Shown here: positions 32,252 to 50,452 of the stretch, in pieces | Layout of the letters: each line of letters starts with the position of its first letter | Position numbering within the stretch: the stretch's first letter is position 1 | Assembly: GCA_026414185.1 (NCBI GenBank) | Contig: JAOAJL010000007.1 | Coordinates: forward strand, 1 to 54,628 | DNA length: 54,628 nt | Source of the DNA: Candidatus Micrarchaeota archaeon | GTDB taxonomy: Archaea > Micrarchaeota > Micrarchaeia > Anstonellales > Anstonellaceae | Direction of reading: 5' to 3' | The notes under the pieces: model-generated | What the model saw: only the letters and a program-made list of their open reading frames with translations | Told to the model about the DNA's origin: nothing | Database searches by the model: none | Made by a program: the position numbers and the translations under genes

Positions 32252-32255
32252 CGCA

Positions 32256-33510: not shown

Positions 33511-34497
33511 TCATATTATCTTCAGCAAGCCCCTCCCCACTTCCGCAAGGTCCGCCCCGAGAAGCGAGCTTCCCTGACGCATTGCGGTGAAGGTTATTAT
33601 GAGGGCAAAAAGCGGGTACAAAAGCGCCTGCATGTAAAGGACCGTTATGGTGTTCTTTATCTGCTCAAGTATGCCCGCATGCTTCTCCTCGTTCATCTTC
33701 ACCTCATAATATACCCGCATCGCAGAGCCGTAACTTGTCGCACATGGGGACTTTTCGCCTTCCTCATATGCGCTTATGCTTGTGCAGGCATGCGACGAAT
33801 TTGGCATCATTGCGACTATCAGCACGTATGTTATTGGAAAGACAAAGCCAAATGCAAGGGCAAATGCACATACAAAGCCGCCAGCCCCCCTTGTGGGCGC
33901 AAAAGAGCGGAGGATAAGTCCAATCGGCAGGAATATCTGCACCATCGTGTATTGGGAGAAGTGAAGAAGATAATACTGGACGTAGTGGAATATACCAAGA
34001 TAAACGATGGCTTTGTTTATGTAATGCGCAAGCGAAACTGGTCCAGCGAGGGCGAACGAGCCGCCCGTCCCCTCCACCCCAAAAGCATCAAAAGAAATAG
34101 AACTTGCAAGCTCAACGAAAAAATTGATTCTGAAAACAATATTGTAGATGCGATCCTCGCAGCGAATGGGACCGTTGACAATGTAGGCTTTTGCTATCTT
34201 GAATGGATCGCGCAGATGCCCTTCTGCGGCTTTTTTCAGCTCCACATTGCCGCTTGCAAGCGCCAGCTTTCCAGTAACTTCGCCCATAACCCAGTTGCCG
34301 GCAGAAACCATGCCAACCGCAAAGGCAATTATCAGGAAAGTGACGGCAACCTGCGCATACTCCGCCTTCGCCCAAAGCTCAAGCTGCTGGAGGGAAAATG
34401 CCTTTGCCGCCATCTGAACAAGAACGGTGATGAAAAGCGAAATGAGCCCGATCGTGGCGCATATCGCTTCCCACCCAAGCGGCAGATTCGCAGCCAT
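33511..34497 (-). CDS. CedA/VirB6-like multi-pass membrane protein, paralogue 6
   Basis: WAKAEYAQ and LPIGLILRSFAPTRGAGG motifs shared across the array. Confidence 0.7.
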   Translation of the reverse strand: MAANLPLGWEAICATIGLISLFITVLVQMAAKAFSLQQLELWAKAEYAQVAVTFLIIAFAVGMVSAGNWVMGEVTGKLALASGNVELKKAAEGHLRDPFKIAKAYIVNGPIRCEDRIYNIVFRINFFVELASSISFDAFGVEGTGGSFALAGPVSLAHYINKAIVYLGIFHYVQYYLLHFSQYTMVQIFLPIGLILRSFAPTRGAGGFVCAFALAFGFVFPITYVLIVAMMPNSSHACTSISAYEEGEKSPCATSYGSAMRVYYEVKMNEEKHAGILEQIKNTITVLYMQALLYPLFALIITFTAMRQGSSLLGADLAEVGRGLLKII

Positions 34498-35565
34498 CTA
34501 TATCAGCCTCGTCAGGTTGCTCACGTCTATCTCCTCTCCCAGTATGTGGGTGAGGGAGCGGGCAATCTCTACAAGCACTATGAATGCAAGCACAGGGAGA
34601 ACCACTGCTGCGATAAAATAAAGGACAATCGGTTTTACGATGAATATGGCTGCGTTTGAAAGCCCATTGACCATCTGTTTGACGTTGCCAGTGTCTGCAA
34701 GTTGCCCTATGTTGTTTTTCAGGTCCTCCGCATTTGGCATTTTTCCGCTTTCCACCTGGCTATTGATGTCCTCTGTTTTCTGCTCAAGCTCGCCCTTTAC
34801 GTCCGTCAACTGCCCGCTTATTATGTAGTCCTGAAGCACTATGGATAAAGGGTAGAAAAACAGGAAAGTTATGGAAATGCCAATCAGCGTCCCCCCAAAT
34901 CCCCTTGACGGCTCAAACGCCCTGAAAAACAGCCCAAAAGGAAGTATGTAAGTCAAGGTCGCATACCCCATGTACTCAACCATCTTCATCTGAAGCCCAA
35001 TTAGCAGGTATGATGTTATGAAGCCGGAAACCATGTAAAACACAATCGTGTTAAGCTGACCAACAGACTCCAGGGGGTTGTCTTCCATTCCCAGTCCGAT
35101 GGGGTTGGAGATATAAGTGGTCCTCTGAAGAAGCCCGACAATTTTCGCAAAATGCATCAGGTAGCCAAACAATATCGCTCCCGTCGCCTGAAGCCCTCCA
35201 AAATAATCCTCAACAATTTCAAACATATTCTTGTCTGCGTACTTCGGCGGTTGGGAGGGCAAGTCAAGAAAACCAAGCTTGAATGCGCATGCGCCAAAAA
35301 TAAAGAAGGCAATAACCGCAAACAAGCCTGCTGTTGCAAATATCTGGAAAAGCTCAAACTTGCACCATGTAAGGAATGCTTGGTTGCGTAGGAAATTGGC
35401 AAACATGAAAAGCAGGACAAGCGAAATCAGAGAAACAAGGAGGGCAAGAAGGCAAAGCTCAAACCACCCGCTGCCAAGCACTCCAAACGAATATGGAAAT
35501 ACGTGCGGGTCGTGCGCAACTATCTTTTCGCATATTTTTTGGGCAAGCAACATAACATTCCTCAT
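34498..35565 (-). CDS. CedA/VirB6-like multi-pass membrane protein, paralogue 5
   Basis: WCKFELFQ, LPFGLFFRAFEPSRGFGG, LGEEIDVSNLTRLI. Confidence 0.7.
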   Translation of the reverse strand: MRNVMLLAQKICEKIVAHDPHVFPYSFGVLGSGWFELCLLALLVSLISLVLLFMFANFLRNQAFLTWCKFELFQIFATAGLFAVIAFFIFGACAFKLGFLDLPSQPPKYADKNMFEIVEDYFGGLQATGAILFGYLMHFAKIVGLLQRTTYISNPIGLGMEDNPLESVGQLNTIVFYMVSGFITSYLLIGLQMKMVEYMGYATLTYILPFGLFFRAFEPSRGFGGTLIGISITFLFFYPLSIVLQDYIISGQLTDVKGELEQKTEDINSQVESGKMPNAEDLKNNIGQLADTGNVKQMVNGLSNAAIFIVKPIVLYFIAAVVLPVLAFIVLVEIARSLTHILGEEIDVSNLTRLI

Positions 35566-36932
35566 ATTATCTTTTCAAGCGCGGATAGGTCAATCTCAGT
35601 GCCAAGCGCCTTGGCAACTTCCTTCGCCAAGGTTATTGTTATGAATATTATGAAAATAGGTATGACCAGGCTGACTATGAAAAGAAAGAAAATCACCTCG
35701 TATATTCCATACAGTAAAAGCGTCAATATTGGGGGCAGAAGAAAAGCAGCAAGCCAGCTTATATTGAATTTTTGAAGTATCTTATTCAATGCCACTGTGC
35801 CTATCGCCACACCTGCAACACCACCAAACGCACCCATGCCGCTGAGTTTTTCAAACACTCCGCCGACCGCCTTTGAGAGCACAGTATTATATATGCAAAA
35901 AACTCCGCTTCCAACAACGGGTAGTTGGCCATCAATAGAAATCACAATGTCGCCTTGTAGAACCTTCTCCTGCGAAAGGCGGTAGGGCTTGCTTGCAGGC
36001 CACGGGTCATAGCCTCTCTTGCCATTAGCGATGAAAGGCTCGTTTTCGTCCTCTGGCTGGGGGTTAATTCCAACACAGCACATCGGCTTGTCCCCAACGC
36101 AAGTCGCCCAGATATGAGGCGGATTTGCAATCGCAAGTTCGTTTTCAAAATAGTTAGTTATCATCTCGCCAAACTGGACCATCATGAACGGATAGACAAA
36201 ATAAAGCGATATGGCAAGACCGATTAGGGCGTTTGCGCCTGCCTTTGCCTGAGGTCCAAAAGCCCGAAGGAATATGCCAAGAGGCAAAAACAGCGGAAGC
36301 ATGGTGTTTTTGATAAAGCAGAGCAAAAATTCGTGTGCAAACCACTCGGCAACAGCCGCGGCTATAAGTTGCATTATCGCCCCAAGCCCGTCAAATATAG
36401 GTCTGAACATAGGGGCAATTTGAAAACTCGTAGCAAAAGCCTTAAAGCCAGCTAGCTTTATATTAGGTTTTTGGTGCGCCACAAACGAAATAATCATGTT
36501 TGAGAAAACCATAAGGGCAAAATCAAAAACAACAGTGTTTCTTATTAGAGTTGAATAAGCGCGGGCGGTGTCTATGTTTTTTACGCCAAAGTCCTCAAGC
36601 CCAGCAAACGACAAAGTCAGCACAGAGAGTATCGCTGCCGTTTCAGCCACGCCCCACAGTGTTCCGCGTAGCCACTCATTCAGCTTTGCGCTTCCGAACA
36701 AACCGCTTACTATGTAGCCTACTGATACTATCAATATGCTTAGAATCAGCGCAATCCAAGCAAGCGGCATCCAGCTATTCGGCGTGCCGCCGACGCACTC
36801 CACGGGCGCTGAAGAGCCAAACATGGTTCCGATGTCGGCAAAGTCAAACGAATTGAGCATGCCGGCAATCATTATGAGGAATATCAAAAATGCGGCAACA
36901 TATGGCATTCTTGAACGGCGTTTTTCCATCAT
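35562..36932 (-). CDS. CedA/VirB6-like multi-pass membrane protein, paralogue 4
   Basis: LPLGIFLRAFGP, LYFVYP, LGTEIDLSALEKII. Confidence 0.7.
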   Translation of the reverse strand: MMEKRRSRMPYVAAFLIFLIMIAGMLNSFDFADIGTMFGSSAPVECVGGTPNSWMPLAWIALILSILIVSVGYIVSGLFGSAKLNEWLRGTLWGVAETAAILSVLTLSFAGLEDFGVKNIDTARAYSTLIRNTVVFDFALMVFSNMIISFVAHQKPNIKLAGFKAFATSFQIAPMFRPIFDGLGAIMQLIAAAVAEWFAHEFLLCFIKNTMLPLFLPLGIFLRAFGPQAKAGANALIGLAISLYFVYPFMMVQFGEMITNYFENELAIANPPHIWATCVGDKPMCCVGINPQPEDENEPFIANGKRGYDPWPASKPYRLSQEKVLQGDIVISIDGQLPVVGSGVFCIYNTVLSKAVGGVFEKLSGMGAFGGVAGVAIGTVALNKILQKFNISWLAAFLLPPILTLLLYGIYEVIFFLFIVSLVIPIFIIFITITLAKEVAKALGTEIDLSALEKII

Positions 36933-38191
36933 ATCAGCCTTGAAAGTATGGATATTTCAACGTCTCCGCCTATTAGCGGCGAGAGATACTTAAAAGCGGC
37001 GAGCATCGCCATCAAGCCAAGAAAAGGGATAACTATAGAGAAGACCATCAATGCCCCAAGCGAACCGAGAGTTCCATCTGGGGAAAATTTAGGAAGGATA
37101 TTTCCCTTGAGCCAATTGGTTTTTATCATCTGCAGAAGTTGGCTTTCAAGTTTGTTCATAGTTCTCTTTTGGGCTTCAATGTTTTCCTGGCTTGCCGAGC
37201 CGCAAATATCCATTATGCTTACTTTTGTTTTGCTCATCTCATTCTGGCTCATCGTATTTGGATTGAGGTCGCCCGCAATTCCAGGAATAAATGAGTTTTC
37301 CATATCAACATCCGTTCCAAATTTTGGAGAAGAATTCTGGTCGCTTCCCCTTACAAATCCAAATAAGATGGCGTTTCCAAGGGCATAAAACATAGGCAAG
37401 ACGATATAGGCGCACAGCCCGAGAGCTATAAGAAGCCCGCCAAGCTTTCTTGTGAAGTAAAAAATGCGCAGGACAAGCCCCATGGAAAGCATAAGAGGCA
37501 AAAAGGCAACATGCAGATATTCAAGCATAAGCTGCTGTATTCTGGCAAACATCATCATTTTCACTGTAAGGTCAAAAATCACGTTGTAATACTCGCTGAT
37601 AATAGACAAGCCTGCAAGTGGGCGTATGGAGATGCCGGCAAGCTCAACTATCGCTTTAGCTGATAAGCCGATGGATATATTGTCTGCTAATGCATAAAGA
37701 GAATTAAAGGTGAGAGCGGTTATCGCATTTGTTCTTCCACTCTCATAAAGCATCTGCAAATAGTCCATAGCAAGAGCGATGTGACAGGGCTTTCCGGCTT
37801 GAATGGCGGTCCTGGGCAAGCAAGTGGAAACTGCTGGGTCGCAGCAGATGATACTGTTAACGTAGCTTCGCCAAGCAGGAGAGCCTGCGGTTGCCAACAC
37901 TCTCAGCCAGCCATCCATACTTGCCATTAGCACAAGCACAACCAGCATTATCAGAGCCGAATAGAAAAGCTGACCAACCTCCTTTTTCACCCACGCTTTC
38001 ATGCTCTCGTCGCCAAGGAAACTGAAAGCCATCCACCCCAATGCAAGAAGAAGTGAAACTATTGCCATTGCAAGAAGCGGCATGCCAAGCCATCCCATAA
38101 CAGGTTTTATCTCCTTTCCAGTAGACGATGTGCAGCCTGCCAAAAGAAGCAGGCATATGAAAAGCAACCCAACCGCCATTCCTCTGCGCAT
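36929..38191 (-). CDS. CedA/VirB6-like multi-pass membrane protein, paralogue 3, with lipobox
   Basis: LLAGC; WVKKEVGQ, MGLVLRIFYFTRKLGG, IGGDVEISILSRLI. Confidence 0.7.
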   Translation of the reverse strand: MRRGMAVGLLFICLLLLAGCTSSTGKEIKPVMGWLGMPLLAMAIVSLLLALGWMAFSFLGDESMKAWVKKEVGQLFYSALIMLVVLVLMASMDGWLRVLATAGSPAWRSYVNSIICCDPAVSTCLPRTAIQAGKPCHIALAMDYLQMLYESGRTNAITALTFNSLYALADNISIGLSAKAIVELAGISIRPLAGLSIISEYYNVIFDLTVKMMMFARIQQLMLEYLHVAFLPLMLSMGLVLRIFYFTRKLGGLLIALGLCAYIVLPMFYALGNAILFGFVRGSDQNSSPKFGTDVDMENSFIPGIAGDLNPNTMSQNEMSKTKVSIMDICGSASQENIEAQKRTMNKLESQLLQMIKTNWLKGNILPKFSPDGTLGSLGALMVFSIVIPFLGLMAMLAAFKYLSPLIGGDVEISILSRLI

Positions 38192-38194
38192 ATT

Positions 38195-39100
38195 TTAACC
38201 CATCTTCTGGCTGATAAATTTCACAGTGCCCTTGATAAATGCAATCGTAAGCGTTATGGATAAGGCAGGCAAGAAAAGTGCCTGCAAAAGAATATACGGC
38301 ATAACTTCAAGAGGGCGGAAAAGCAAACCGTCAATGTCAAACATGCCACCCTGGCTTACCGCCCACTGCGAAAAAGCCGCATATCTGTTTTGATCCAGTG
38401 TTCCAAGCGGGCTTTTGAAATCAGCCTTTTTCAGCATCATCCCAACAATTTCAGAGTGCATAACGTAGGTATAAGGATAAACAAGCTGAAAGCCGAGGGC
38501 AGAGGCGATAAGAAAAGTGCCCGCATCCCTCGTTGGCGGGAAAATCCTCAATATTGCCCCTGCGGGAAGCACAAAAGGCAATGCAATGGCTTTTATTACC
38601 TCAATTATCACCTGCTGAACCATAAGGCTGGCGGTAAAAGGAGTCATAAGCGCAAGAAGGAAATCCGCCACCCGCTCAATAACTACAAAAGAAGGGAAGG
38701 CAGGCACCAACACTCCCCACACTGATAGCCCCCATCTCATGCTTATAGAGCCCATATACTGAGAATATATTTTCAGAACCTCCATTGACATTATCGCCAC
38801 AAGAGCAAGGTTGTTTGAAATATAGCTTAGATAGCTCCTCGCAATTGCAAACGGATCTGAGCCTGCCAACACTTCAGTTACCTGAGCCGCAAAGCAGGAA
38901 AAACCGAATATGCTAACCATAAGAAAAGCCGAAACTCCAAGCTGGTAAAGCTCAATTGAAACAAACGACTCATATTCCGGCTTTCTGAAAAAAGCTGCCG
39001 CCATGTAAGCTAAACCAAGCAGAGTGGCAAGCAGGGCAATAGAGACTGCTGCAATTGACAATGCAGTCATTGCTATGAAATCCGGAGTGCAAAGAGGCAT
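38195..39100 (-). CDS. CedA/VirB6-like multi-pass membrane protein, paralogue 2
   Basis: FVSIELYQ, LPAGAILRIFPPTRDAG, FQLVYP. Confidence 0.7.
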   Translation of the reverse strand: MPLCTPDFIAMTALSIAAVSIALLATLLGLAYMAAAFFRKPEYESFVSIELYQLGVSAFLMVSIFGFSCFAAQVTEVLAGSDPFAIARSYLSYISNNLALVAIMSMEVLKIYSQYMGSISMRWGLSVWGVLVPAFPSFVVIERVADFLLALMTPFTASLMVQQVIIEVIKAIALPFVLPAGAILRIFPPTRDAGTFLIASALGFQLVYPYTYVMHSEIVGMMLKKADFKSPLGTLDQNRYAAFSQWAVSQGGMFDIDGLLFRPLEVMPYILLQALFLPALSITLTIAFIKGTVKFISQKMG

Positions 39101-39121
39101 CTTTCAACCACCTATCTTCTT

Positions 39122-40579
39122 TCATACTAATTTTGTAATTCCCAGCAGTCTTGGCTCCCCCCCTATCAGAATTGAAAAGTCTTTCAGCAGCGTCAAAGTT
39201 ACAACTATGCTGTTTATTATGAACAGAAACATCAAGGCAAGAAGCTTGCCAGTTTCTGCAGTCGCATGTTCAAACTGTCTAAACGCAAACCGCGGTCCAG
39301 CGCTTACAATGGCACCTGTCGCATCCTTCATTCGCTGTATGAAGACGTTCTGCGTGCCCCTATCATACTGCTCCTCGTTCAATTTTCCAATCCTGTCTTT
39401 TTCTTCCATATCCCGCTTCAGCCTAACCTGCGTTTTTGTGGAAGGGTCATTTTGTGCCAGCTTCTCATTTTTCAATTTGGAGATATACTCCTCCTCTTTC
39501 TTCCCCTCTTCCGACAGGATAGTTTCAAGCCTACTTGAAAGCGCAGGATTGTCAATCGCTTCCTCGCAGAGCAAGAAAGACGAGGTCGCGTCAAGGAAAT
39601 CAGATACTGCTGGCTGGCATTTGTCTTCGTAGCAGGAATTCGTGCAACACTCCTGGTCGGTCTGGCAGCTTTCCCCCACTTTTTTATAGGCAGGGTCGCT
39701 GCACAAGGGGGGAGAATCCACCATATTCCACATATGCCAATTAAGCAGAATGGTAAGTGGAAATATGAAATAGGCTGCGAAAGCAACTGCCACGATTGTC
39801 GAGCCGGTCTTTCTTGTGAATGGAAAAACGCGCATCAATATCCCAAGTGGAAGAAAGTAGTTCAAGGCAGTCAGATCAATAAAGTTCAAAAGTATCTTCT
39901 GTGCGGCAGCCCCGCCTATTAGCGTTCCAAGCAAATCCACAATTACAGTGTTTGCCTCATTGATAAACGAAAAAAAGATCGGAAGAATAATGTTGTGTAT
40001 CTCAAATTCAACTTGGGGAACACCCCATATCATCACATTTATCTCAATGCTGAGTGTTCCTAAAAATCCACTCAGTATTTCAAATATCATCAAGCGCAGA
40101 TACCTTCCTACAAGCGCCGGCAGCAATACACCGTTGTTATCGCTTAGGGCATATGGAACGCCTACCGCTATGATATCCCAGAAACTCCATCTACATCCAA
40201 TAAAATAATCCGCCTGCCCTATCGCGAAGTTTCCTTTCTCATAGTAATAGCCGTTAATAGGGTCACCCCTCAATTCTCCGTGAAATTTAGTCCACTCCGG
40301 ACAGCTTTTTGGCATCCCGGCTGTTTTGGGGACAAGCCCATGCCCCACTTTATCAAATATGCCATTTGGTATTGTAAGAAGGATGCAGATAATCACTATA
40401 ATCGCACTTACCGCCAACTCACGCAACTCAAGCTTTGAAAATGCCTTAAGGGATGGCATAGAGAAAATTTCACTCATCATATAAGAAAGAGCGGTTATGA
40501 AAGCAGCTATCCCAAATGCCGCGATTATGGCTGGATTTTGGAAGAAGTTCTGCGCTCCATAAAGGATGAAATCCATCAT
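39122..40579 (-). CDS. CedA/VirB6-like multi-pass membrane protein, paralogue 1, with Cys-rich loop
   Basis: FSKLELRE, LPLGILMRVFPFTRKTG, CQTDQECCTNSCYEDKC, IGGEPRLLGITKLV; start moved to 40579. Confidence 0.7.
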   Translation of the reverse strand: MMDFILYGAQNFFQNPAIIAAFGIAAFITALSYMMSEIFSMPSLKAFSKLELRELAVSAIIVIICILLTIPNGIFDKVGHGLVPKTAGMPKSCPEWTKFHGELRGDPINGYYYEKGNFAIGQADYFIGCRWSFWDIIAVGVPYALSDNNGVLLPALVGRYLRLMIFEILSGFLGTLSIEINVMIWGVPQVEFEIHNIILPIFFSFINEANTVIVDLLGTLIGGAAAQKILLNFIDLTALNYFLPLGILMRVFPFTRKTGSTIVAVAFAAYFIFPLTILLNWHMWNMVDSPPLCSDPAYKKVGESCQTDQECCTNSCYEDKCQPAVSDFLDATSSFLLCEEAIDNPALSSRLETILSEEGKKEEEYISKLKNEKLAQNDPSTKTQVRLKRDMEEKDRIGKLNEEQYDRGTQNVFIQRMKDATGAIVSAGPRFAFRQFEHATAETGKLLALMFLFIINSIVVTLTLLKDFSILIGGEPRLLGITKLV

Positions 40580-40644
40580 TGCCAAGCCACCATCAGTTTC
40601 CTGCTTCATTACACAGCATAAACTTATAAGTCTGTCAAGCAAAA
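40580..40644. promoter_or_regulatory. Short divergent promoter region between the membrane-protein array and the giant protein
   Basis: 65-bp head-to-head spacer containing AT-rich ATAAACTTATAAG. Confidence 0.45.
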
Positions 40645-43600
40645 ATGGCTTTTGGTGAGTGTTTGGACTGGCGCAGGGCAGGGCTTGCATTGGCATTTGC
40701 CTTGCTAATGGTGTGCCAGCCCTTATTTTGCGATTATATATACAGCGACCTTCCCTACAAGACGCTGCTTTCTGCGAATGTCCGCTTCAATGAATTCACT
40801 GTTAAGCTGATTTATATTAACGTTTCTTACTACCAGAAGCCGGAGACCCAAAAAGTCCCGCGGTTTCCAAGCGTATATGGTGACAATTCGCAGGATGATT
40901 TTTCAGCAGCAGGTTTTCCGGTAGAGAATGGAGAAATATACTTCAAGTTTAACGGCCAGCGGGTATCTGAAAATGGCGGCGAAGAAGGGTGCTATCCAGC
41001 AAAGACGAATAGCAGCGGTATGGCAAGGTGCAAAATAAATTTTGTATGGGATTCATCAGAAGGAAAGTTTGTAAGCATAGACAAAATTAAAGATTGCGGC
41101 AACGTGGAAATAGAGTTTAAAGGCGGCTCTATCGGAGAACTTGACCTCAAACCTTCAAGCATGTCGCTTATTTTCTGCCCAAAGGAAAGCGAGGCGATTT
41201 CAGCATTCGGATCTGCAATTTATTCCGCCTTGACAAACAGACCGGCGGCTGCCTTCTTCTGTTTTACTGCGATGCTGATAAGCGGAATCCTTGTCGCCGC
41301 GATGTATTATTCAGGAAGGGACCCGCTATCCCTTTTTGACCTTACCACCCCGCGCCTTCCGAGAACAAAGCAAGGCAGAGTTTCTGGAGGCAAAGCTTCG
41401 TTTGCGGTAAGGACTGCGGCAGCAAGATATGCACAGATGAAAAAACAAGTAGAAAAACAGTATAAAAAACTGTTAGTAAAAACTGCGAAAAAGAACAAGA
41501 GGGACGTCGGAGCTGCAAAAAAGGAGTTAAAGGCGCTGCTCAAAGAGCTCAAGAGTCTGCGGGGGAAGGCAACCGATGAGGACATAAGAAGATTCCAAGA
41601 AAAGCTAAAGGCGCTTTTTGTAAAATACGGCCTCAATCCACAGAACAAGTATTACCGCGATGCTCTTTATTATGCATCTTCTCTTGTGAACATATACCTA
41701 TTTGCTGATATAGCATCGGGGGCGATGTCTGCTGCGCGCAGCGCAGAGGCGGGGGGAAGGCTTACACGGTTCATAGACGCAAAGTTGAAAAATCTCAGCG
41801 ATAGGCTTGCGGCAAACGACCAAAAATTGCAAAATATCAAAGGGGTCAAGCTCCTACTCCATGTTCCACTAATATTCGCAGTGCCAAAAATATCAAAGAA
41901 GATTCTGGATTCAGTCATGCTTAGACGAGCTGGCAAGAAGTGGATAAAATCAACTGCAAAGCTAACCATAGGGCAGGCGATATTCATCGCTGGAATAAAG
42001 AAAGAGGCACGGAAGGGAAAAGTCGCCATAACAGAAAATAGCTTCAGATGGTGGTTCAAAGGGGTGCGCCGGCTTTTTGACAAAGCCCCGTTTGAGTCTG
42101 AAGAAAGAAAGCTTACTTTGCTTGGGAAATGGTTCAAGTGGTATTACGGATGGGATTTCAAGAAATTCGTCCAAAAGCACGATATTTGGAGAAAAAAGCT
42201 TGATGAATACCGGGATGAAGTCAAAAGAGCAAGAGTACTAATAAGCGAATACCAAAACTCGCTGAAATTGCTTCTTGTAAAAGAGCTGCTTGATGAGCTT
42301 GTGCGCGAAGAGAGGGCAGAACGGTATCTTAAAGAAATATTGAAGAAGCTGGCGAAAAACAAGCAGCTGGATGAAAAAGAGATAAGAGACCTTGAAAAAT
42401 CTCTCACCGGTATATTCAAGCAAATCCGGGATTCTGCCTTAGCAAAAGCAGACAACCCAGCCGAAGCCGCAAGTCTGATGAGAAGTCTTGCAGACAAGTA
42501 TTTCCATGAACACAGGGCTCCTGAGGAAATAAGAAGGGAATTTGAAAAAATCATCAACCGAAATATCGCCCTTTTGAATGCGATTGGCCAGCATGGCGGA
42601 AAAGATGCGGCTGCTCTTCTAACAGAGCTTCTCAAAGCAGACGAGCGCCTTCGCGGCATGAACGTGGCTTCCCAGCTTCAAGAGATAAAGAAGTTACAAG
42701 ACGAACTAAACAGGGTTTACGGAATTTCAGTGCTGCTGCACGATGCCTTTTTGAGCGACCCGAAAAACTACGGAAAGGCAAAGGCAATCGAGCTTTCGCA
42801 CATAGAAGCCATCGTGGATTTTGAAGCAAGGCAGATGCTCCAAAAGATGAATGAAGCAGGCGATAAGAATGTCAAGAAGCTCATGCAAGGCGGCTTCCTC
42901 ACCAGAGAACTGATTGAAAGATACCTGGCGGAGCATAGAGAAGCGTACGAGTCCCTTGCCAAGACTGTCAACCAGAAGCTTCGCTCCATGGGCGGCATCC
43001 TGGAAGATTTTGTTGATAAAAAGATGGCAGAGGGCGATAAAACATTTTTCCTCAGGCTTGGTCTTGGCTATGCTTTTGACTCACAGGGGAAAAAATATGC
43101 AGTTGACAGTGTAAGAGAGTTTGAGTCCCACTTCATAAAAGAAGTGCGCAACCGGGTAATTAGAGAATTCTCCAAGCATGACACATTTGACAAGAGCTAC
43201 AATCCGAACGCCGACCTTGTAAGCCTCCTGAATCAAAAAATAGCGGAGCTGAGGTTACAAATAAACAGGCAGCTGGGTATGGATGAGCCGTCAATCCTGC
43301 CAGGCACAGATCCTGGCGGATCATTCCAATGCCGTCTTATAAACCGCATAGTTGGCATCCTGAATGATCCTGAGCTTAAAAAATTCATGAAAGAAAACGG
43401 CTTGGATTCCATAAAGGACATAAACGAGCTGGAGATGCTTTTCCGAGCAGGAGTAAAAGCGCCCGATTTCATCAGAGAAATTACAAAAGCCCTATTGAAA
43501 GCAAACAAAGCGCAACTTGAGCAAATTGCAGAGCTGTTGGCGACCAGCGAAGCTTCAAGGAACATGTTTCTCAAAAGCATGGAAACCGCAATCAGCAACA

Positions 43601-46600
43601 GAATCGCGGTGCTGGAGAGGCTCTCAAGCTTAGATTATGAGGACATCAAAGCCATTTGCAAGAGGCTCAATATCCAATTTTCCAGAGAGCTTTATGAGTC
43701 CAATCGGGCTGCATTGCATGAGCAGATAGTAGAGCGGCTTCCTCTGCTGAGGGACGAGGCTTTCTTTGGGAAGAGGGCGCTGGGCTTCATCTCCAGAAAA
43801 ACAGGGCTTGAGCCGGAAACCCTATGTCGTTCCTCACTAAGCGAAATAGTCCTGGTTTCCATTCTGGAAAAAAGCTTTGTCCAAACTACGAGATGGGCTG
43901 CTGAGGTATTAAAAATCAACTCAATGATCAACTACCGCTACGAAGGGCCCGCTTACTGGAAAATGTCGCTGGAGGAAATTGTCGGTCAATTGAGAGAAAA
44001 AGGCAAGATGCAACAGCAGATTGAGTGGGCAGCCCTCAGAAACCAGTTCCTTGCAAACCAATACGAAGGTAGCAGAGGCTATCATATAGAAACTCTTCTT
44101 TTTACAACGCGATGGATGAATCGCCTCGCAGAACAAGCCCTTGTCTATAGCCAAGGCAACGCGCCATGGGGCGGAACGATCCTTGCGAACTTCAATTCAG
44201 TTATGGACCACAACCGCTTCAGCTATCTTGCCAAGAAAGCCGTTTTCAGGAATTTGATTGACCATGAAAGCACACTTTTCCAGGACGCAGACTATGCGAT
44301 GAAGCTTGCCGCCCTGAAGGGCTGGACGAAAGAAGAAATAGAGGCAATACAGAAAAAGGACGCGAAGGCACTAGAACGTTTAAAGTCTATTGAATATGAT
44401 GCAGATGCATACGACCTTCTCATGAAACGCGGCTTGCAGATGCGGGATGTGCAGCAAGGGCTGGCGTACTGGATATCAAGCGACAAGATGGGGACTGTTC
44501 CGATAATCGAGTTTGACAAAGGAGAGCTTGAAAGGCAGGGGAAAGGGATAATTCTGCTTGCTGACAAAAAGGGGGACCATCTGAAAGAAGACATAAGGGA
44601 CTACAATCCTCTCCTTGCGCGGTTTAACATGTCCGATTACGCAAGCGTCGTAAACGGGCTTGTTCCAGTAAGGATTGTCTCTAAAGAAGGCGAGCCGCTG
44701 AAAATAAGGCGAGTGGACCCGCTGAAATTTCATGAAGTAGAAAGGTTTTATACAATAGGCGAGAGCAACATAAACAAAAGAAACGAGATTGCAAACATAA
44801 TCGCCGCCACAGGCTCGCTCAAATTCATGCACGTGACTGACTACCAAGTAAACTATGCGCCTCGCAGGCAGAGGATTGTCACATCAGTAGGTTCTGCGAT
44901 TGGCGGATTTGTCTTCGCAGTCTTCTATGACCACATAAAGCGCTTTAATGAGTGGTATGTGGCAGCCAACCGCTACCGCGACATGCTCTATGACCTTGAA
45001 AGGCAGATGAGCGGGATGAGGACTGCCGGAATAAAAAGATGGGACGCAAATGAAGCGCTCAGGCAATACGGGGCTGTTTTGGAAAGCGAGATGGAAGCGC
45101 TTGATAAGAAGAACCCAAGAAGCGGCGCCAGCCGCGCTGAAATACTGCGGGACCTAATAGTCAATCTCCAGAATACCGACAAGTCAAATTTCCTGAAAAG
45201 AAGCTATCTTGCCTACACGTATTCAGCCCACGCGATGGTTGAAAATGCAGTCCGTGAGGCAGAATTGGAAAAGAAAGCCCTCAAAATAATGCTTGATAAG
45301 GGCATAATAAGCAGAGATGAATACAGCCAGCTTCTCAATAGCAACGCCTGGAAGACCAGGCTTGATACTGTTTCTTCTGAGCTTCGGAGCTACGGGCTAG
45401 AGACAAGAAGCCTGGAGCGAGCTCTCAAAAGCGACTCCATTTCCGCATCCACAGCAATCTCAGCCCTGAAAGACTGCAATAGAGACGTTTCAAAAGAAAC
45501 AAGCACGTTCACAAAAGCGCTGATAGAAATGGGCGGTTCTGGGCAGATGACCAGAAGCATTTTCTCAACATGGAATCCCTCAACCACTTACAGATACACA
45601 GAAGGAATGCTTGCGAAGTCCCACTCCGCAATTGAGGCAAGCTGCATGCGCGATACTCGGACCGCTCTTGGGCAGAAGATAGGGCTTGAATACGCCTTCT
45701 ATATGGGATTTGATACCGGCCAGGGTATGTATGAAAACCCACGGACATACGCATCTTCGTTGTGGGAATACGAGCTTATTCCATACCTCCAATTTGTCGG
45801 GTGGGCACACAAGTTCTTCCTTCCGATTGCAAGCACATTTTACAGAGGTCAGGCAGGCATGTCTTCCTACTTTTTCAAGACCGAGCTTGAGCCAGGCTCG
45901 GCTGGCAAAGTCACAACTGACCTGTCTCTTCTCTTGCGCATAAAGAAAGGCGTGTCTGATTTTGCTTCCTCAACATGGCAAAATATCTCAAACTACGCAG
46001 GGGTTACGAATGTGGTGGGTGCCCTCCAGACCGGCGGCAGGATAAAATTTGACGAGCTTGGCAGGTCATATATAGACAAAGCGTGGTATTCAAACTTGGT
46101 CAAGCATTACGCTGTGCCGAGCGAATGGTACAGCACTTATGCCGCCATCCAGCGCCAAGCCAGTTTACAAGACAAAATAGCCGCCTCGGACATATTCAAA
46201 AAGAATGAAATAATCGTTGATGGCGAAGGGAAGAACGTCTATATGGGAGAGGATGGGAAGATTTACTATGGCAAAAAAGAAAAGGAAGAAGCCGAAAGAG
46301 CAGGGGTGAGCTTCGCAAATGAAGGCCAGCCGCTCAGAACGCATGACCTTGCAGAAGCGTGGGTTAAAACATTCAACGAATATATGTTCTCCTACGGGTC
46401 AAAAAAAGACGAGCTACGCGAGCAGCTTCGCGAATATGAAAACCTAATGAAGCCATATATGTATTCTCTTGTTGATTTTCGGGCAGAGGGGGCAAGGCGC
46501 GGAACCTCCGGCAAATACTTCATGGAAGACGGCTCGCGGTATCGTTTCATGAACCTTTATCTACCCAACTACATGAATGCCTGGATGGAAACTATATCGG

Positions 46601-47265
46601 TTCCAGGCGCCTTTGAGCTAAATCCGCTTGCCGGCGGAAAGGAGCTTGGGCCAAGAATCGCCGCAGACATCTCCCGCGCAGAAAAAGATTCGCGCCTTGG
46701 GCGCATGCAGGATGAGTTTGTTTTAAGATGGAATGAGGCGCTGCAAGACTTTATTGTCATAAACAACTCAACGATACATCAAGATGCAGTGCGGGACCAC
46801 TATTATTACCGCACTCCTGCCCTCCTTCACACCATAAAATACCAAAGCTATCTTGTTCGTTACGAATGGCTTGACCCGTGGCTTAGCCAATTGCCCGGTT
46901 ACAAATTCCTGCACCACAAGTTCTTTGAAGCCCGCAGAAGGCCGGAGCTTACGGACGAAGAAAACAGAAGGATGCGCACTGCGATGGCAACCTACCTGCC
47001 AACCTGGAGGGATGAGGAGATTTCCCAAAACATAGCGCTCAGAGAGGCAAATTACAATCCTGTTTTCCGTTCATATGAAAGCAGGGCGACATTTGCCCTT
47101 CAGCGGTTCTTCTACAAGCGAATAGACTCGTATATACACCGCTGCAGGCTGATACAGCGAAGCTACGGGCTGCCTGATGAATTGAGGGCGCGCTCCTCCA
47201 TGGCAATGTTAAACATGGAAGAGATGTTCCGGCTCACTTTACTGCTTGACAGTTCAATTTACTAA
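40645..47265 (+). CDS. Giant (2206 aa) membrane-anchored hypothetical protein
   Basis: Uninterrupted ORF; signal-like N-terminus, beta-rich domain, TM helix near aa 200-222, long charged helical remainder. Confidence 0.85.
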   Translation: MAFGECLDWRRAGLALAFALLMVCQPLFCDYIYSDLPYKTLLSANVRFNEFTVKLIYINVSYYQKPETQKVPRFPSVYGDNSQDDFSAAGFPVENGEIYFKFNGQRVSENGGEEGCYPAKTNSSGMARCKINFVWDSSEGKFVSIDKIKDCGNVEIEFKGGSIGELDLKPSSMSLIFCPKESEAISAFGSAIYSALTNRPAAAFFCFTAMLISGILVAAMYYSGRDPLSLFDLTTPRLPRTKQGRVSGGKASFAVRTAAARYAQMKKQVEKQYKKLLVKTAKKNKRDVGAAKKELKALLKELKSLRGKATDEDIRRFQEKLKALFVKYGLNPQNKYYRDALYYASSLVNIYLFADIASGAMSAARSAEAGGRLTRFIDAKLKNLSDRLAANDQKLQNIKGVKLLLHVPLIFAVPKISKKILDSVMLRRAGKKWIKSTAKLTIGQAIFIAGIKKEARKGKVAITENSFRWWFKGVRRLFDKAPFESEERKLTLLGKWFKWYYGWDFKKFVQKHDIWRKKLDEYRDEVKRARVLISEYQNSLKLLLVKELLDELVREERAERYLKEILKKLAKNKQLDEKEIRDLEKSLTGIFKQIRDSALAKADNPAEAASLMRSLADKYFHEHRAPEEIRREFEKIINRNIALLNAIGQHGGKDAAALLTELLKADERLRGMNVASQLQEIKKLQDELNRVYGISVLLHDAFLSDPKNYGKAKAIELSHIEAIVDFEARQMLQKMNEAGDKNVKKLMQGGFLTRELIERYLAEHREAYESLAKTVNQKLRSMGGILEDFVDKKMAEGDKTFFLRLGLGYAFDSQGKKYAVDSVREFESHFIKEVRNRVIREFSKHDTFDKSYNPNADLVSLLNQKIAELRLQINRQLGMDEPSILPGTDPGGSFQCRLINRIVGILNDPELKKFMKENGLDSIKDINELEMLFRAGVKAPDFIREITKALLKANKAQLEQIAELLATSEASRNMFLKSMETAISNRIAVLERLSSLDYEDIKAICKRLNIQFSRELYESNRAALHEQIVERLPLLRDEAFFGKRALGFISRKTGLEPETLCRSSLSEIVLVSILEKSFVQTTRWAAEVLKINSMINYRYEGPAYWKMSLEEIVGQLREKGKMQQQIEWAALRNQFLANQYEGSRGYHIETLLFTTRWMNRLAEQALVYSQGNAPWGGTILANFNSVMDHNRFSYLAKKAVFRNLIDHESTLFQDADYAMKLAALKGWTKEEIEAIQKKDAKALERLKSIEYDADAYDLLMKRGLQMRDVQQGLAYWISSDKMGTVPIIEFDKGELERQGKGIILLADKKGDHLKEDIRDYNPLLARFNMSDYASVVNGLVPVRIVSKEGEPLKIRRVDPLKFHEVERFYTIGESNINKRNEIANIIAATGSLKFMHVTDYQVNYAPRRQRIVTSVGSAIGGFVFAVFYDHIKRFNEWYVAANRYRDMLYDLERQMSGMRTAGIKRWDANEALRQYGAVLESEMEALDKKNPRSGASRAEILRDLIVNLQNTDKSNFLKRSYLAYTYSAHAMVENAVREAELEKKALKIMLDKGIISRDEYSQLLNSNAWKTRLDTVSSELRSYGLETRSLERALKSDSISASTAISALKDCNRDVSKETSTFTKALIEMGGSGQMTRSIFSTWNPSTTYRYTEGMLAKSHSAIEASCMRDTRTALGQKIGLEYAFYMGFDTGQGMYENPRTYASSLWEYELIPYLQFVGWAHKFFLPIASTFYRGQAGMSSYFFKTELEPGSAGKVTTDLSLLLRIKKGVSDFASSTWQNISNYAGVTNVVGALQTGGRIKFDELGRSYIDKAWYSNLVKHYAVPSEWYSTYAAIQRQASLQDKIAASDIFKKNEIIVDGEGKNVYMGEDGKIYYGKKEKEEAERAGVSFANEGQPLRTHDLAEAWVKTFNEYMFSYGSKKDELREQLREYENLMKPYMYSLVDFRAEGARRGTSGKYFMEDGSRYRFMNLYLPNYMNAWMETISVPGAFELNPLAGGKELGPRIAADISRAEKDSRLGRMQDEFVLRWNEALQDFIVINNSTIHQDAVRDHYYYRTPALLHTIKYQSYLVRYEWLDPWLSQLPGYKFLHHKFFEARRRPELTDEENRRMRTAMATYLPTWRDEEISQNIALREANYNPVFRSYESRATFALQRFFYKRIDSYIHRCRLIQRSYGLPDELRARSSMAMLNMEEMFRLTLLLDSSIY

Positions 47266-47302
47266 CCTTATGATTAAAAAACGCATCTGGAAAGTGATTG
47301 TC

Positions 47303-49498
47303 ATGCGCTTTGCGGCATACGCATTTTTCGCCTGCCTCCTCCTTCTTTCAGGCTGTGTCCTTTACACTGAGGATGACAGGGGAAACAGGATTTTGATGTC
47401 CGATGAAGAGAAGCTTGGGATAAGCACAATGAGTGTCCAGCCCATCAACGAGGAATGCGATGATTCAGACCCTCTTCCTTGCCGGTGCATGCTCTGCGAG
47501 AATAAAACCCCCTGGGCAGCGCGGCTTCTGCCTTTCCTTTCGCGCTGGCTGGACTCCTCCCTTAAAGGCGGAAAATGCAATTTCTCCCCCTGCAACGCAG
47601 GAACTTTCGTGAAGAACATCATGTTCCACTCAGACAAAATCCAAAACCGCGTCTTTATGTATGGGCACGGGCCTTCATTCAGCTCAACGGATTCGGCAAA
47701 CCTTTATTGCGAATACTCCCTTCAGCTTGCAACTAAGTGGATGAAGGGAATCGGAGCCCCGCCAAAAATTCCAGTTCCCGGTCGTGCCATGTGCTGGCTT
47801 GAGCGTAATGTGATGCCCCTTTATATCTACTATACCAAAGGGCAATACATAGATGAAAGCAGGACAAGGCAGATTGCAAAAGCTCTCAATGGCGCCGGCC
47901 CGGCAATACTCACAACAGAAGTGGATTTTGACTCATCAAACTCGGAGCAAGTTGAGGCTGTAAAAAAGCAGATTTTAGCATACCAAGATTGCGAGGAGTG
48001 CCTAACCGCCCTTGCCTTGAAGTCGGGTGATTACCATGGCCTTGAGCTTTTCCTAGAAGACCCGACAATTTATCCAAACGGCAAGAATCTTTCGGAGATG
48101 ATAGACCTTGTCGGGTTTGGCTTCCGCGCAAATGACTACAAAACATGCGACGTGGAGAAGATAATAGGCGAAAACTACCTGTTCAGCAGGCAGATTCTTG
48201 AAAATTATTCAAAGCCCTCAATATGGCTTTATGCTGGAGCTTCGCAGGGCAAAAATGTTGATGGCAAATGCACCTTCACGGCGCAGAAGGTTCACAATTT
48301 CTACCAGCGCCTATTTTCCCTCGCCCCCGCACTTGCAAATTCCGGAGTTATTGGGGTGAGCTTCTACGAATTCATAGACAGGACTGGTCCGCTGCCGTGC
48401 AATGATGTCCAGAACTGCGAGTTTGGCGTGATGAAACCAGACGGCCAAAAGCACCCTGAAATAAACACCTGGTCCCGGCTCTGCAAATACTACGGGACAG
48501 AGGACGTGCGCAATCCAATCATTTACCCCAGAAACGGCAAAAGCCCCCTCTGCGACTTTGCCCAGAACTTCAAAATGTTCAAGGAAGTTTCAAGGGAGGT
48601 TGGCGTGACTGAGAAAGGGCTTGAATACGAGGAAGTTTCCCCCACAGAAAAGCGCGAGAAATTCGGCTGCGGCGAAGTGTGCGTTTCAGAATTCAAGGTT
48701 CCAAAACCCGACGTCTACGACAACACAGGCAAGCAATTGGACGCAACAGCAGGAATAGACCCGTGCATTGACTTTCCAATCATAGACCAGCTTGCAGATG
48801 ACAATGATTTTTCTGCGATGTACATGCGCGCCATAATATCCCAAGAGTCGCAGTTTGACCGGTGGGTAGTTTCGTGCAATGAGGTACCATGTATCACTCC
48901 TCTTGGCACAACAATGAGTGATATCTGCACTTCCGCTGGATATGGGCCGGACTGCCCAGCCCACACCCTTGGAGGAGGAAAAACCTGTCCATCTTCAAAG
49001 CCATATTTCTGCGCCTACGGGCTTGCCCAGTGCATAGAACGCCCAGGTGACAGAAGCAGCGCAACAGACGGCTGCCGCGGAGAAGACGACTTTTACGACC
49101 CCTTCAACCCGGCTGAAAACGTCTGCTGCGGCATAAACAAGATGCGAACGGCCCTTGAGAGTGCCGAGCAATTCGTAAATTCGGTCAAGGACACTCTTGC
49201 AGAATGCTCGGGCGGTTACGAAGAAGAGGAATACGGCTGGCTTACGCACTATCTTGCCTCCCTTGAATACTATATAGGGGGAGAACGCGCCTACAAAAAT
49301 CACTTTGGCAATTTCCTTGCCCAGCGTGATGACCCAGATACTGGAGGCAAATGTAGCGGCGAAGTGGATTTTGTTGAATACCTCAAAACAATACCATGCG
49401 ACAAAGTTAAAGACTGCCGTAAATATCCACAGCAGGTTTTAAGCCGCTATATTGATGCAGTTGACAATCAGTGCGACTCCGACTGCCCAGGAAAATAA
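47303..49498 (+). CDS. Cys-rich lipoprotein with possible glycoside-hydrolase-like domain and C-terminal lytic transglycosylase (SLT)-like domain
   Basis: LLSGC lipobox; RAIISQESQFD (Glu 48845), AYGLAQ, PFNPAENVCCG in SLT order. Confidence 0.72.
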   Translation: MRFAAYAFFACLLLLSGCVLYTEDDRGNRILMSDEEKLGISTMSVQPINEECDDSDPLPCRCMLCENKTPWAARLLPFLSRWLDSSLKGGKCNFSPCNAGTFVKNIMFHSDKIQNRVFMYGHGPSFSSTDSANLYCEYSLQLATKWMKGIGAPPKIPVPGRAMCWLERNVMPLYIYYTKGQYIDESRTRQIAKALNGAGPAILTTEVDFDSSNSEQVEAVKKQILAYQDCEECLTALALKSGDYHGLELFLEDPTIYPNGKNLSEMIDLVGFGFRANDYKTCDVEKIIGENYLFSRQILENYSKPSIWLYAGASQGKNVDGKCTFTAQKVHNFYQRLFSLAPALANSGVIGVSFYEFIDRTGPLPCNDVQNCEFGVMKPDGQKHPEINTWSRLCKYYGTEDVRNPIIYPRNGKSPLCDFAQNFKMFKEVSREVGVTEKGLEYEEVSPTEKREKFGCGEVCVSEFKVPKPDVYDNTGKQLDATAGIDPCIDFPIIDQLADDNDFSAMYMRAIISQESQFDRWVVSCNEVPCITPLGTTMSDICTSAGYGPDCPAHTLGGGKTCPSSKPYFCAYGLAQCIERPGDRSSATDGCRGEDDFYDPFNPAENVCCGINKMRTALESAEQFVNSVKDTLAECSGGYEEEEYGWLTHYLASLEYYIGGERAYKNHFGNFLAQRDDPDTGGKCSGEVDFVEYLKTIPCDKVKDCRKYPQQVLSRYIDAVDNQCDSDCPGK

Positions 49499-49578
49499 AA
49501 ACAGAGAAACCCAAATTCCGCCTATCTTCCAACACGTGTTTCCAGAGCCTCATTCCCCCCAACGCCCATCACAGGCTT

Positions 49579-49608
49579 AAATACGAAAAAAGAAAATACG
49601 AAAAAAGA
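49579..49608 (-). terminator. Tandem 15-bp duplication giving two T6 tracts downstream of speD
   Basis: AAATACGAAAAAAGA twice (49579-49593, 49594-49608), 12 nt past the speD stop. Confidence 0.5.
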
Positions 49609-49620
49609 GAAGAAGCGCGG

Positions 49621-50061
49621 CTAATTTCCATTCTCCTTAAGCTTTGCCCCTTCCCTCTCCCGCTCAAGCTCAATTGTCTGGCGAGCCCGCCATATGTCCT
49701 TGGGAAAGTGCCTGCCGCGCATGAAGAAGTTCTTCTCATAGGTTTTTGCCTCAAACTTTGAGGCGATGATGTCTGCGGCTGGCTCAACATCAAACTCCTT
49801 GCAGGAGAAGATGTCAACCGACGCATAGCCTTTCTCGGGGAAAGTATGTATGCTGATGTGGGACTCTGCAATAAGAACTATGCCGGATACCCCCCAATCC
49901 TCCGGCTTTAGCCCCGAATACGAAAACGTATAGGGCGGCATAATCTTCGTCATGCCGATAAGCGACGGCAACTCATCCAAAAAAGAATAAACAAAATTCA
50001 CATCCTTCAATTTTTTCTTGTTGCACCCATACATGTCCATGGTCAAATGCGGTCCAAACAT
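49621..50061 (-). CDS. speD: S-adenosylmethionine decarboxylase proenzyme
   Basis: GPHLTMD, GVSGIVLIAE|SHISIHTFPE, DIFSC; start moved to 50061. Confidence 0.93.
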   Translation of the reverse strand: MFGPHLTMDMYGCNKKKLKDVNFVYSFLDELPSLIGMTKIMPPYTFSYSGLKPEDWGVSGIVLIAESHISIHTFPEKGYASVDIFSCKEFDVEPAADIIASKFEAKTYEKNFFMRGRHFPKDIWRARQTIELEREREGAKLKENGN

Positions 50062-50452
50062 CTGTTTCGCTTCCTCCTTTTCTCTGCCGAGGTTCTCCCT
50101 CCCAGAGAAGACGCTATATATAAATAGACAACATTTATAAATATTCCTGTTTTCAAAAAATAAAAAAAGCTCATAATCCATTTTGGCACAAAAATATTAG
50201 TTATTATTATCTTTTTTGAAAAAAAGAAATCTAATAGCTGTTTTTTTCTGTTTAAAAAATTTAATATCGTCTTTAGCTAATTTCAGGCTTGATTTCCTTA
50301 TTTTTATCTAAAAATAGGCTCTAATGCCAGATTTAATAGATTTAGGACATCTTATATATTTTCTAACTTTCAACAACGTCTGTAAGGTGAAGTTGCTCAA
50401 TTTTGCCCCACGCGCCCCATAGCAATATATATGGCGAATGGGATTTCCTTCC

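Follow-up and report, generated by a model that had tools for sequence, protein, structure and literature searches.

The window analyzed here is a 54,628-nucleotide contig of a Candidatus Micrarchaeota archaeon (GenBank assembly GCA_026414185.1, contig JAOAJL010000007.1), and it carries a plus-strand gene for a 731-residue, cysteine-rich protein that begins with a lipobox and appears to combine a glycosidase-type barrel with a C-terminal domain related to lytic transglycosylases. The open reading frame (ORF) starts with an ATG at 47303 and stops at 49496–49498. Starting instead at an in-frame TTG at 47246 would lengthen the protein by 19 residues and make the gene overlap the 3′ end of the preceding one; homologues start 15–40 residues before the lipobox cysteine, in keeping with the ATG. 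A reading made from the letters alone (the sequence-only reading) had described a disulfide-rich lipoprotein joining a glycoside hydrolase (GH)-like domain to an SLT domain. All nine motif strings that it quoted are present in the translation, and its remark on abundant cysteines is accurate: of the 37 Cys in the protein, 35 follow Cys18 of the lipobox, and 20 are invariant across an alignment of 41 homologues. That alignment (A1) was built without the short or partial sequences P0019, P0021, P0043 and P0044. A C-terminal alignment (A2) leaves out L002 (truncated), L022 (split match) and L024, alignment A3 leaves out L022, and a wider alignment comprises 161 family proteins of at least 600 residues.

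The window is one contig (C32) of a 0.96-Mb, 35-contig genome that is 87% complete. Elsewhere it encodes ribosomal protein L15e, the RNase P subunits Pop5 and Rpp30, and fibrillarin, together with RtcB, SMC, XPF/ERCC4, SecD/SecF, PEP synthase and an ADP-forming acyl-CoA synthetase. The named homologues of the lipoprotein come from metagenome-assembled genomes labelled “Candidatus Micrarchaeota”, “Micrarchaeia” or “Anstonellaceae”, with one labelled Woesearchaeota and two “uncultured archaeon”. Because of the archaeal housekeeping genes and the Micrarchaeota homologues, the organism is assigned to the Micrarchaeota, a DPANN lineage. The stretch is contained in one DNA sequencing run (X1, labelled hot springs metagenome), which may be its source; no RNA run is listed as containing it.

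A word-indexed search with the lipoprotein returned 45 homologues at E ≤ 0.001, 44 of them at E ≤ 1.8e-96, and for none of the 45 is a Pfam domain precomputed or the name informative. A match in Roseibium (L025, 33% identity over 54 residues, E 7e-4) was taken as a chance match and excluded from all counts. Searching 1.84 billion proteins with a profile of the barrel region alone gave 262 representative clusters at E ≤ 0.001 (167 at E ≤ 1e-30); in nearly all of these matches the barrel domain begins at about residue 50–60 of a protein 700–1000 residues long. Of 401 genomes sampled across the phylum, 157 contain a match to the family, including 27/29 genomes of the organism's own family and 73/76 and 16/17 genomes of two large sister families in the same order. 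Two other large families of the class, f12 and f13, yielded no match (0/94 and 0/83 genomes). Within its own genome, the lipoprotein is single-copy and the sole SLT match.

The sole N-terminal hydrophobic segment of the protein comprises residues 3–21, ending in L-L-S-G-C. Residues 15–18 (L-S-G-C) fit the lipobox pattern, [LVI][ASTVI][GAS]C, and Gly17 and Cys18 are each at least 90% conserved across the 41 sequences. The conserved lipobox, and a Cys content that fits an extracellular protein, agree with the earlier lipoprotein call, and a lipid is probably attached at Cys18. Bacterial Lgt (PF01790) and LspA (PF01252) found no match in the 87%-complete genome, nor in control archaea; the archaeal enzymes were not searched for. 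An AlphaFold2 model of the full-length protein has a mean predicted local distance difference test score (pLDDT) of 85.3 and a predicted template modelling score (pTM) of 0.83, with low confidence only at residues 19–21 and 35–51, in the tether. The protein would thus be exported by Sec, probably lipid-anchored and stabilized by disulfides, with a flexible tether holding its two domains outside the cell.

Residues 440–731, modelled separately from 21 sequences (pLDDT 87.9, pTM 0.86), are predicted to adopt a diverged GH23/SLT lysozyme-like fold. Among 48,161 representative chains, the nine best structural matches are all GH23 enzymes (Z 10.7–13.2, root-mean-square deviation (rmsd) 2.5–4.2, 153–185 aligned residues). 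Pseudomonas aeruginosa MltF ranks first (5aa1_A, Z 13.2, rmsd 3.0, 167 aligned), followed by 5o2n_A (12.9), MltC 4c5f_A (12.7), MltE 4hjy_A (11.8), the g-type-lysozyme complex 4g9s_A (11.8), Slt70 1qsa_A (11.2), MltD (11.0), and 7lam_A and 6fc4_A (10.7 each). Only 15 of the 48,161 chains reach Z ≥ 8. The top 25 listed Foldseek matches are likewise all lytic transglycosylases, with 5ohu the best.

The Pfam SLT profile (PF01464), which the sequence-only reading had proposed as a check, matches residues 496–622 with an E value of 0.0074 and falls short of its 21.3-bit gathering cut-off, scoring 16.3 bits on the protein and 18.9 bits in a six-frame search. The match recurs at E ≤ 0.1 in 25 of the 41 homologues (best 3.1e-05), and several distant family members exceed the cut-off, among them P0066 (32.2 bits), P0145 (29.9), P0180 (27.8) and P0148 (24.4). 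Against the PDB, a profile of the C-terminal domain gave chance-level rows and one MltC chain, 9vi7_A, at E 1.9; this weak alignment lays ...EQESgFDP... on ...QIESSFNP... of MltC.

In known family-1 lytic transglycosylases, the Glu of the Glu-Ser motif, which closes the first core helix, is catalytic, the second motif is of the GLMQ type and the third of the AYNxG type. The corresponding residues are strongly conserved in the 41-sequence alignment: E515 in 40, S516 in 38, G573 in 41 and Q576 in 40. The same holds for Y598 (40/41), P600 and F601 (both 41/41), A652 and Y656 (both 40/41), and G659 (36/41). The third motif is only similar, with a family consensus of ASNxYYG and a one-residue insertion in the lipoprotein (ASLEYYIG). 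Across the 161 wider members, 147 retain E515 and 120 retain all four of E-S-G-Q; the Glu is lost in a few, such as P0037 (“LN”) and P0046 (“NN”). ES and GLxQ, named earlier as lytic transglycosylase/goose-lysozyme signatures, are therefore conserved and lie in a modelled lysozyme-like fold, whose absence would have counted against the earlier reading.

The ES (515–516) and GLAQ (573–576) motifs are 56 residues apart. The Cys-rich insert that had been described between them is indeed there, with five Cys in residues 517–569 and C570 adjoining, and the Pfam match spreads 127 protein residues over 80 profile positions (5–84), leaving about 47 extra residues. The lipoprotein thus shares its predicted fold, Glu-Ser, GLxQ and A-x-x-x-Y-x-G with the family-1 enzymes MltF of P. 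aeruginosa and MltC, MltE and Slt70 of Escherichia coli, and with g-type lysozyme. It differs from known GH23 enzymes in the roughly 47 additional residues with 5–6 Cys between the first two motifs, in its fusion behind a clan-A-type barrel, in its lipobox anchor, and in its occurrence in an archaeon without detected murein polymerases. It illustrates the extent to which an SLT domain may depart from the norm, its signature split and its disulfides numerous, while retaining the catalytic motifs.

The middle of the protein is modelled as a (β/α)8 barrel of the glycoside-hydrolase clan-A type (residues ~115–400), with eight strand–helix units assigned by DSSP between residues 119 and 399. The best Foldseek matches are GH2 β-glucuronidases (4jkk, E 6.7e-08). 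Structural alignment (VIA) with human β-glucuronidase 3hn3_D covers model residues 67–401 (Z 19.9, rmsd 3.3, 270 aligned), and GH1 and GH26 enzymes give similar Z values. In a search of the 48,161 representative chains that was independent of Foldseek, the best 50 matches are all glycosidases or Klotho by title (Z 17.0–19.1; 8in1_B at 19.1 and 2bv9_A at 18.8 against the whole model), and we take all 50 to belong to clan GH-A. Structures of GH1, GH2, GH5, GH10, GH26, GH39 and GH53 are included among the matches with Z 17.0–19.9. The middle domain, put forward only tentatively as GH-like, is in this way borne out by the model as a clan-GH-A-type TIM barrel.

No named GH sequence family could be attached to the barrel, which has no Pfam, NCBIfam or PDB sequence match; a PDB sequence search with the lipoprotein gave no matches, and the full-family profile gave one irrelevant match (6kos, E 0.31). 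Language-model (Atlas) look-alikes at a score of 0.88 are Glyco_hydro_cc, GH53 and GH1, and serve as leads only. A comparison of the barrel profile with Escherichia coli UidA by hhalign (probability 0.4%) was uninformative and was not used. In six genomes of the same class (G230, G051, G391, G168, G273 and G093), further matches to the C-terminal two-thirds of the barrel profile lie within open frames of 1232–3447 residues, which indicates that another family of the class has the domain as part of giant proteins.

Strand order in the model would place E206 at the clan-A acid/base position and residue 315 at the nucleophile position. E206 follows strand 202–206, the fourth, and is Glu in 40/41 and 151/161 homologues; the preceding residue makes this a Thr-Glu pair where Asn-Glu is usual in clan A. 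Residue 315, after strand 7, is Glu in 31 of the 41 sequences and Gln in four, including the lipoprotein studied. In the wider set, 117/161 have an acidic residue at 314/315, and the 44 that have none include this lipoprotein and its nearest relatives, P0002 and P0004. The barrel thus resembles clan GH-A in fold and in the Glu ending strand 4, and departs from it in its lack of a sequence family, in Thr-Glu on strand 4, and in Gln315 where the strand-7 nucleophile Glu would be expected. Because of this last replacement, the barrel of this copy would most likely bind a glycan, holding the substrate, rather than cut it, or may act by a noncanonical route. It seems to be a clan-A-type barrel drifting from enzyme to binding module. 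The sequence-only reading had proposed a surface enzyme degrading glycans with both domains; an exported-type protein with an SLT fold and its motifs is upheld, and activity of the barrel is doubtful for this copy.

Domain fusions in other family members bear on the substrate. A Pfam scan of 108 distant members found SLT in 15, Peptidase_M23 in six and NlpC/P60 in one. M23 exceeds its cut-off in three of them (P0145, 65.4 bits; P0060, 58.0; P0056, 55.7), and NlpC/P60 scores 35.3 bits in P0180. For P0145, the M23 region can be aligned to M23 peptidases of solved structure (best E 2.1e-09), and the alignment takes in its HDGVD and HLHF segments, which we take to be the M23 metal-binding motifs. 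M23 and the barrel share one open frame in 3/5 same-class genomes checked (G178, G271 and G189). Characterized M23 and NlpC/P60 members act on murein peptides, and murein hydrolases usually unite glycan-cutting and peptide-cutting domains in a single polypeptide. The fusions in orthologues thus point to peptidoglycan as the target and are the main support for it, indirect as regards the lipoprotein itself.

Profiles for GT51 and SEDS found no match in the 87%-complete genome, and for that reason a role on a wall of the archaeon's own was set aside. The genome has one Mur-ligase-type ORF, of a family that also matches in control archaea without murein.

We estimate a probability of roughly 55% that the protein is a lipid-tethered, disulfide-rich surface protein whose GH23 domain, with the aid of a clan-A-type barrel that binds glycan, cuts a glycan of the peptidoglycan type outside the cell. 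Glu515, in the Glu-Ser motif, would be the only catalytic acid/base, attacking a β-1,4 bond of the type joining N-acetylmuramic acid (MurNAc) to N-acetylglucosamine (GlcNAc). Since no murein polymerases were found, and orthologues in other families of the same class are fused to M23 or NlpC/P60, the most likely substrate would be bacterial peptidoglycan outside the archaeon, in the wall of a neighboring or host bacterium or in wall debris.

Several observations weigh against this proposal. The SLT scores lie below the Pfam gathering threshold, Foldseek gave no match for the C-terminal domain at E ≤ 0.001 (best 0.01), and neither sequence nor profile searches of the PDB turned up a significant SLT match. 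The places of Glu515 in the cleft and of Glu206 and Gln315 at the clan-A catalytic positions are inferred from motif and strand order. With the genome 87% complete, the absences are provisional, and the peptidase fusions belong to other members of the family and not to the lipoprotein studied. GH23 includes chitinases (3w6b, Z 9.1), so the glycan need not be murein. We know of no Micrarchaeota shown to live on bacteria. The known partners of Micrarchaeota are, according to PMC5864196, wall-less Thermoplasmatales.

The same features could instead describe a protein that cleaves nothing, its two domains binding glycans as a lectin or adhesin would or serving as structural parts of the envelope. 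The Gln at strand 7 in this copy and its nearest relatives, the 44 members lacking an acidic residue there, the few that have lost the SLT Glu, and an SLT domain so diverged that it scores under the Pfam cut-off and accommodates an insert of about 47 residues would all suit such a protein. We nevertheless regard it as very improbable, given that retention of Glu515 in 147/161 members and of E-S-G-Q in 120/161 is the pattern expected under selection for catalysis, and that the M23 domain of P0145 aligns over its presumed metal-ligand motifs.

A different glycan is unlikely but deserves more weight. The same folds might act on a non-murein, GlcNAc-containing glycan of an archaeal partner or of the archaeon's own envelope, in archaeon–archaeon contact or self-remodelling; such a glycan could be the chitobiose core of S-layer N-glycans, a chitin-like material or the pseudomurein of a methanogen host. 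Besides the GH23 chitinase cited above, the structural matches in the lysozyme-like superfamily include a cellulase of GH124 (6g1g, Z 9.3) and a chitinase from an archaeon (5xsv, Z 7.0), and the barrel resembles clan-A enzymes that act on uronic acids and hexoses. The gene is a vertically conserved core gene at a fixed site in the chromosome, beside housekeeping genes, and not obviously an imported bacterial cassette. Against this reading, pseudomurein has β-1,3 links and a uronic acid where a lytic transglycosylase needs the C6-OH. The nine best structural matches are, moreover, all murein-acting GH23 enzymes or g-type lysozyme, and the M23 and NlpC/P60 partners of the orthologues are murein-peptide-acting types. 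The only Micrarchaeota partners named in the abstract of PMC5864196 are archaea, in keeping with an archaeal glycan.

Table 1. Features of the lipoprotein and its gene, and of the adjoining membrane-protein genes; positions are those of the window.
Feature	Position	Strand	Residues	Basis
Whole gene, 731-aa Cys-rich lipobox protein	47303..49498 (stop included)	+		ORF list, translation
Signal peptide to lipobox L-L-S-G-C (Cys18)	47303..47356	+		One hydrophobic segment; G17/C18 conserved
LLSGC, lipobox			14–18	
Low-confidence tether	47357..47470	+	19–56	pLDDT < 50 at 19–21 and 35–51
Small Cys-rich N-terminal subdomain, PCxCMxCxN motif	47471..47644	+	57–114	Invariant C60, C65, C92; strands 60–66 and 92–97 in model
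Predicted (β/α)8 barrel, clan-GH-A type	47645..48502	+	~115–400	Foldseek and structural alignment of model
ILTTEVDFD, quoted barrel motif			202–210	
Glu206, end of barrel strand 4	47918..47920	+	206	Alignment and DSSP strand order
IDLVGF, quoted barrel motif			267–272	
KPSIW, quoted barrel motif			304–308	
Gln315, after barrel strand 7	48245..48247	+	315	Alignment and strand order
GVIGVSFYEF, quoted barrel motif			348–357	
EFGV, quoted barrel motif			373–376	
Inter-domain region, conserved CGExC motif	48503..48772	+	401–490	Invariant C456, C460, C488; pLDDT 62–89
Predicted GH23/SLT lysozyme-like domain	48773..49495	+	~491–731	Pfam SLT (weak), model, structural matches
AIISQES, first SLT motif			510–516	
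Glu515-Ser516, candidate catalytic pair	48845..48850	+	515–516	Conservation, weak MltC alignment
Cys-rich insert splitting SLT signature	48851..49009	+	517–569	5 Cys; Pfam profile gap
Y-G-L-A-Q, second SLT motif	49016..49030	+	572–576	G573 in 41/41, Q576 in 40/41
FNPAENV, quoted C-terminal motif			601–607	
Giant gene, 2206-aa membrane protein	40645..47265	+		No Pfam family; hydropathy and Cys pattern used for topology
Six paralogous polytopic membrane-protein genes	33511..40696	-		Cross-matching; divergent from giant gene
Paralogue gene	33511-34497	-		
Paralogue gene	34498-35565	-		
Paralogue gene	35562-36932	-		
Paralogue gene	36929-38191	-		
Paralogue gene	38195-39100	-		
Paralogue gene	39122-40696	-		

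Directly upstream of the lipoprotein gene, on the same strand and ending 37 bases before its ATG, lies a giant gene for a membrane protein. Its product has a signal peptide, an ectodomain of about 170 residues with four invariant Cys, and one transmembrane segment (residues 202–220), followed by an invariant MYYSGRDPLSLFD-type motif and about 1985 Cys-poor residues rich in Lys, Arg and Glu; no Walker A motif is present in it. The ectodomain, the transmembrane segment and the MYYSGRDPLSLFD motif are conserved. The giant gene occupies this position in 20/23 related loci, the other three holding fewer than 600 bases upstream, and speH lies downstream of the lipoprotein gene in 20/23. A complex prediction for lipoprotein residues 52–731 with the giant ectodomain scored 0.00 against a mark of 0.32, and was given no weight either way as to binding.

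Divergent from the giant gene is a block of six paralogous genes for polytopic membrane proteins of 301–524 residues. They have a common LPxG..R.F.PTR motif, and five share a C-terminal “..D.S.L..LI” tail. The block is present in 15/15 related loci that reach 10 kb upstream. A profile of the family matched no PDB sequence, a Pfam scan of 16 members gave nothing meaningful, and each of the 120 listed homologues either lacks a name or is called “hypothetical”. Members occur in 344/401 genomes of the phylum, usually in several copies (the count includes two unpublished genomes, G198 and G029), and it extends to 90/94 genomes of f12 and 78/83 of f13, families in which the lipoprotein was not found.

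Because synteny holds across related loci, the locus is a vertically inherited core region, not an island. G+C content drops from ~0.53–0.56 to 0.45–0.49 over positions 32000–50000, which cover the membrane-protein, giant and lipoprotein genes; the block is still syntenic with housekeeping genes and does not look like a recent island.

The sequence-only reading had gone on to propose a VirB1 analogue, an idea to which the gene context lends no support. Pfam scanning of 44 other ORFs in the window (14 neighbors and 30 more) recognized no VirB4/VirD4/HerA-type ATPase, pilin or other part of a type IV secretion system (T4SS), and the three HerA/DUF87-type ATPases of the genome lie elsewhere, on contigs C22, C11 and C29. 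A lipoprotein of this kind would be the wall-opening subunit of an envelope-spanning machine, formed with the giant protein and six CedA/VirB6-like paralogues, that cuts a local hole in a partner's wall for docking or transfer. We consider this distinctly unlikely. The case for it lies in the fixed arrangement of the locus, in which the giant gene nearly abuts the lipoprotein gene and the paralogue block recurs wherever the locus reaches far enough, and in a likeness to VirB1-type transglycosylases such as EtgA, which share the SLT-type fold (8urn_A, Z 7.8; 4xp8_A, Z 5.3). A language-model search also placed the 301-residue paralogue near a “CedA1 domain-containing” cluster (score 0.91, 201 shared features). 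In PMC9905601, CedA is described as VirB6-like, with N-termini homologous to CedA1.

Other observations weigh against a VirB1-type role. The CedA1 (PF27251) lead is a weak language-model one, with that family on 23% of the 78 members of the matched cluster, and the paralogues have neither a Pfam nor a PDB match of their own. No secretion-system ATPase or pilin was recognized in the lipoprotein's cluster, and the giant protein has no Walker A motif. The lipoprotein is also far larger than VirB1-type enzymes, two-domain and lipobox-anchored, although its gene, like theirs, sits in a conserved cluster of membrane-protein genes. The membrane family is present in f12 and f13, so the presumed machine exists without the lipoprotein.

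A further reading, which we rate as quite improbable, is put forward as speculation. The lipoprotein might be the wall-breaching tool of an undescribed Micrarchaeota surface apparatus, made of the six paralogues (possibly CedA/VirB6-like) and the 2206-residue giant, with which it may cooperate; lineages in which the barrel-SLT protein arose, whether or not joined to M23 or NlpC/P60, would use the apparatus on bacteria. If so, these lineages would be cross-domain episymbionts or predators and not partners of wall-less archaea. The orphan membrane proteins that adjoin the lipoprotein gene are phylum-wide and merit study of their own.

Action on bacterial peptidoglycan, the reading we prefer, has precedent in other DPANN archaea. 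Large murein-like lytic-transglycosylase proteins (“fam00969”) have been reported from Woese- and Pacearchaeota (PMC8204110), as has GH23 from Woesearchaeota (PMC9723730). PMC8204110, PMC9723730 and PMC10936187 interpret such Woese- and Pacearchaeota proteins as agents that bind bacterial walls or degrade them. In PMC5864196, three Micrarchaeota genomes are noted to have a “lytic murine transglycosylase”, taken there as a sign of action against bacteria. SLT proteins in DPANN archaea, Micrarchaeota included, are thus already published, and the lipoprotein is a refinement, not the discovery of a kind. It resembles the reported proteins in being an extracellular SLT-domain protein of a small-genome archaeon. 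The reported cases are either Woese- and Pacearchaeota proteins of up to ~3000 residues or an annotated gene merely listed, whereas the lipoprotein has ~730 residues, a lipobox, a GH-A barrel and a split SLT signature, is near-universal in its own order, and has a fixed place behind a giant membrane-protein gene. A literature search that did not cover supplementary tables found no description of the barrel and split-SLT lipoprotein family, of its peptidase-fused orthologues or of the conserved locus. On the question of what hosts DPANN archaea have, the lipoprotein gives an inexpensive and concrete means of asking whether a large part of the Micrarchaeota acts on bacterial walls.

Three further observations concern the surrounding ORFs. 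The paralogue at 36929-38191 (minus strand) starts with a lipobox-type signal (…LLLLAGC), which explains its spurious weak match to the signal of a phage spanin lipoprotein (E 0.0099). A plus-strand ORF of 393 residues at 33478-34659 overlaps the minus-strand paralogue at 33511-34497; it is probably not a gene, since the minus-strand ORF cross-matches the paralogues in related loci. At 50438-51253 on the plus strand lies a gene for a 271-residue protein with several CxxC zinc-ribbon-like pairs, a Pro/Lys-rich tail and weak DUF7573 and DZR matches, which sits between the speH and RNase P genes in most related loci.

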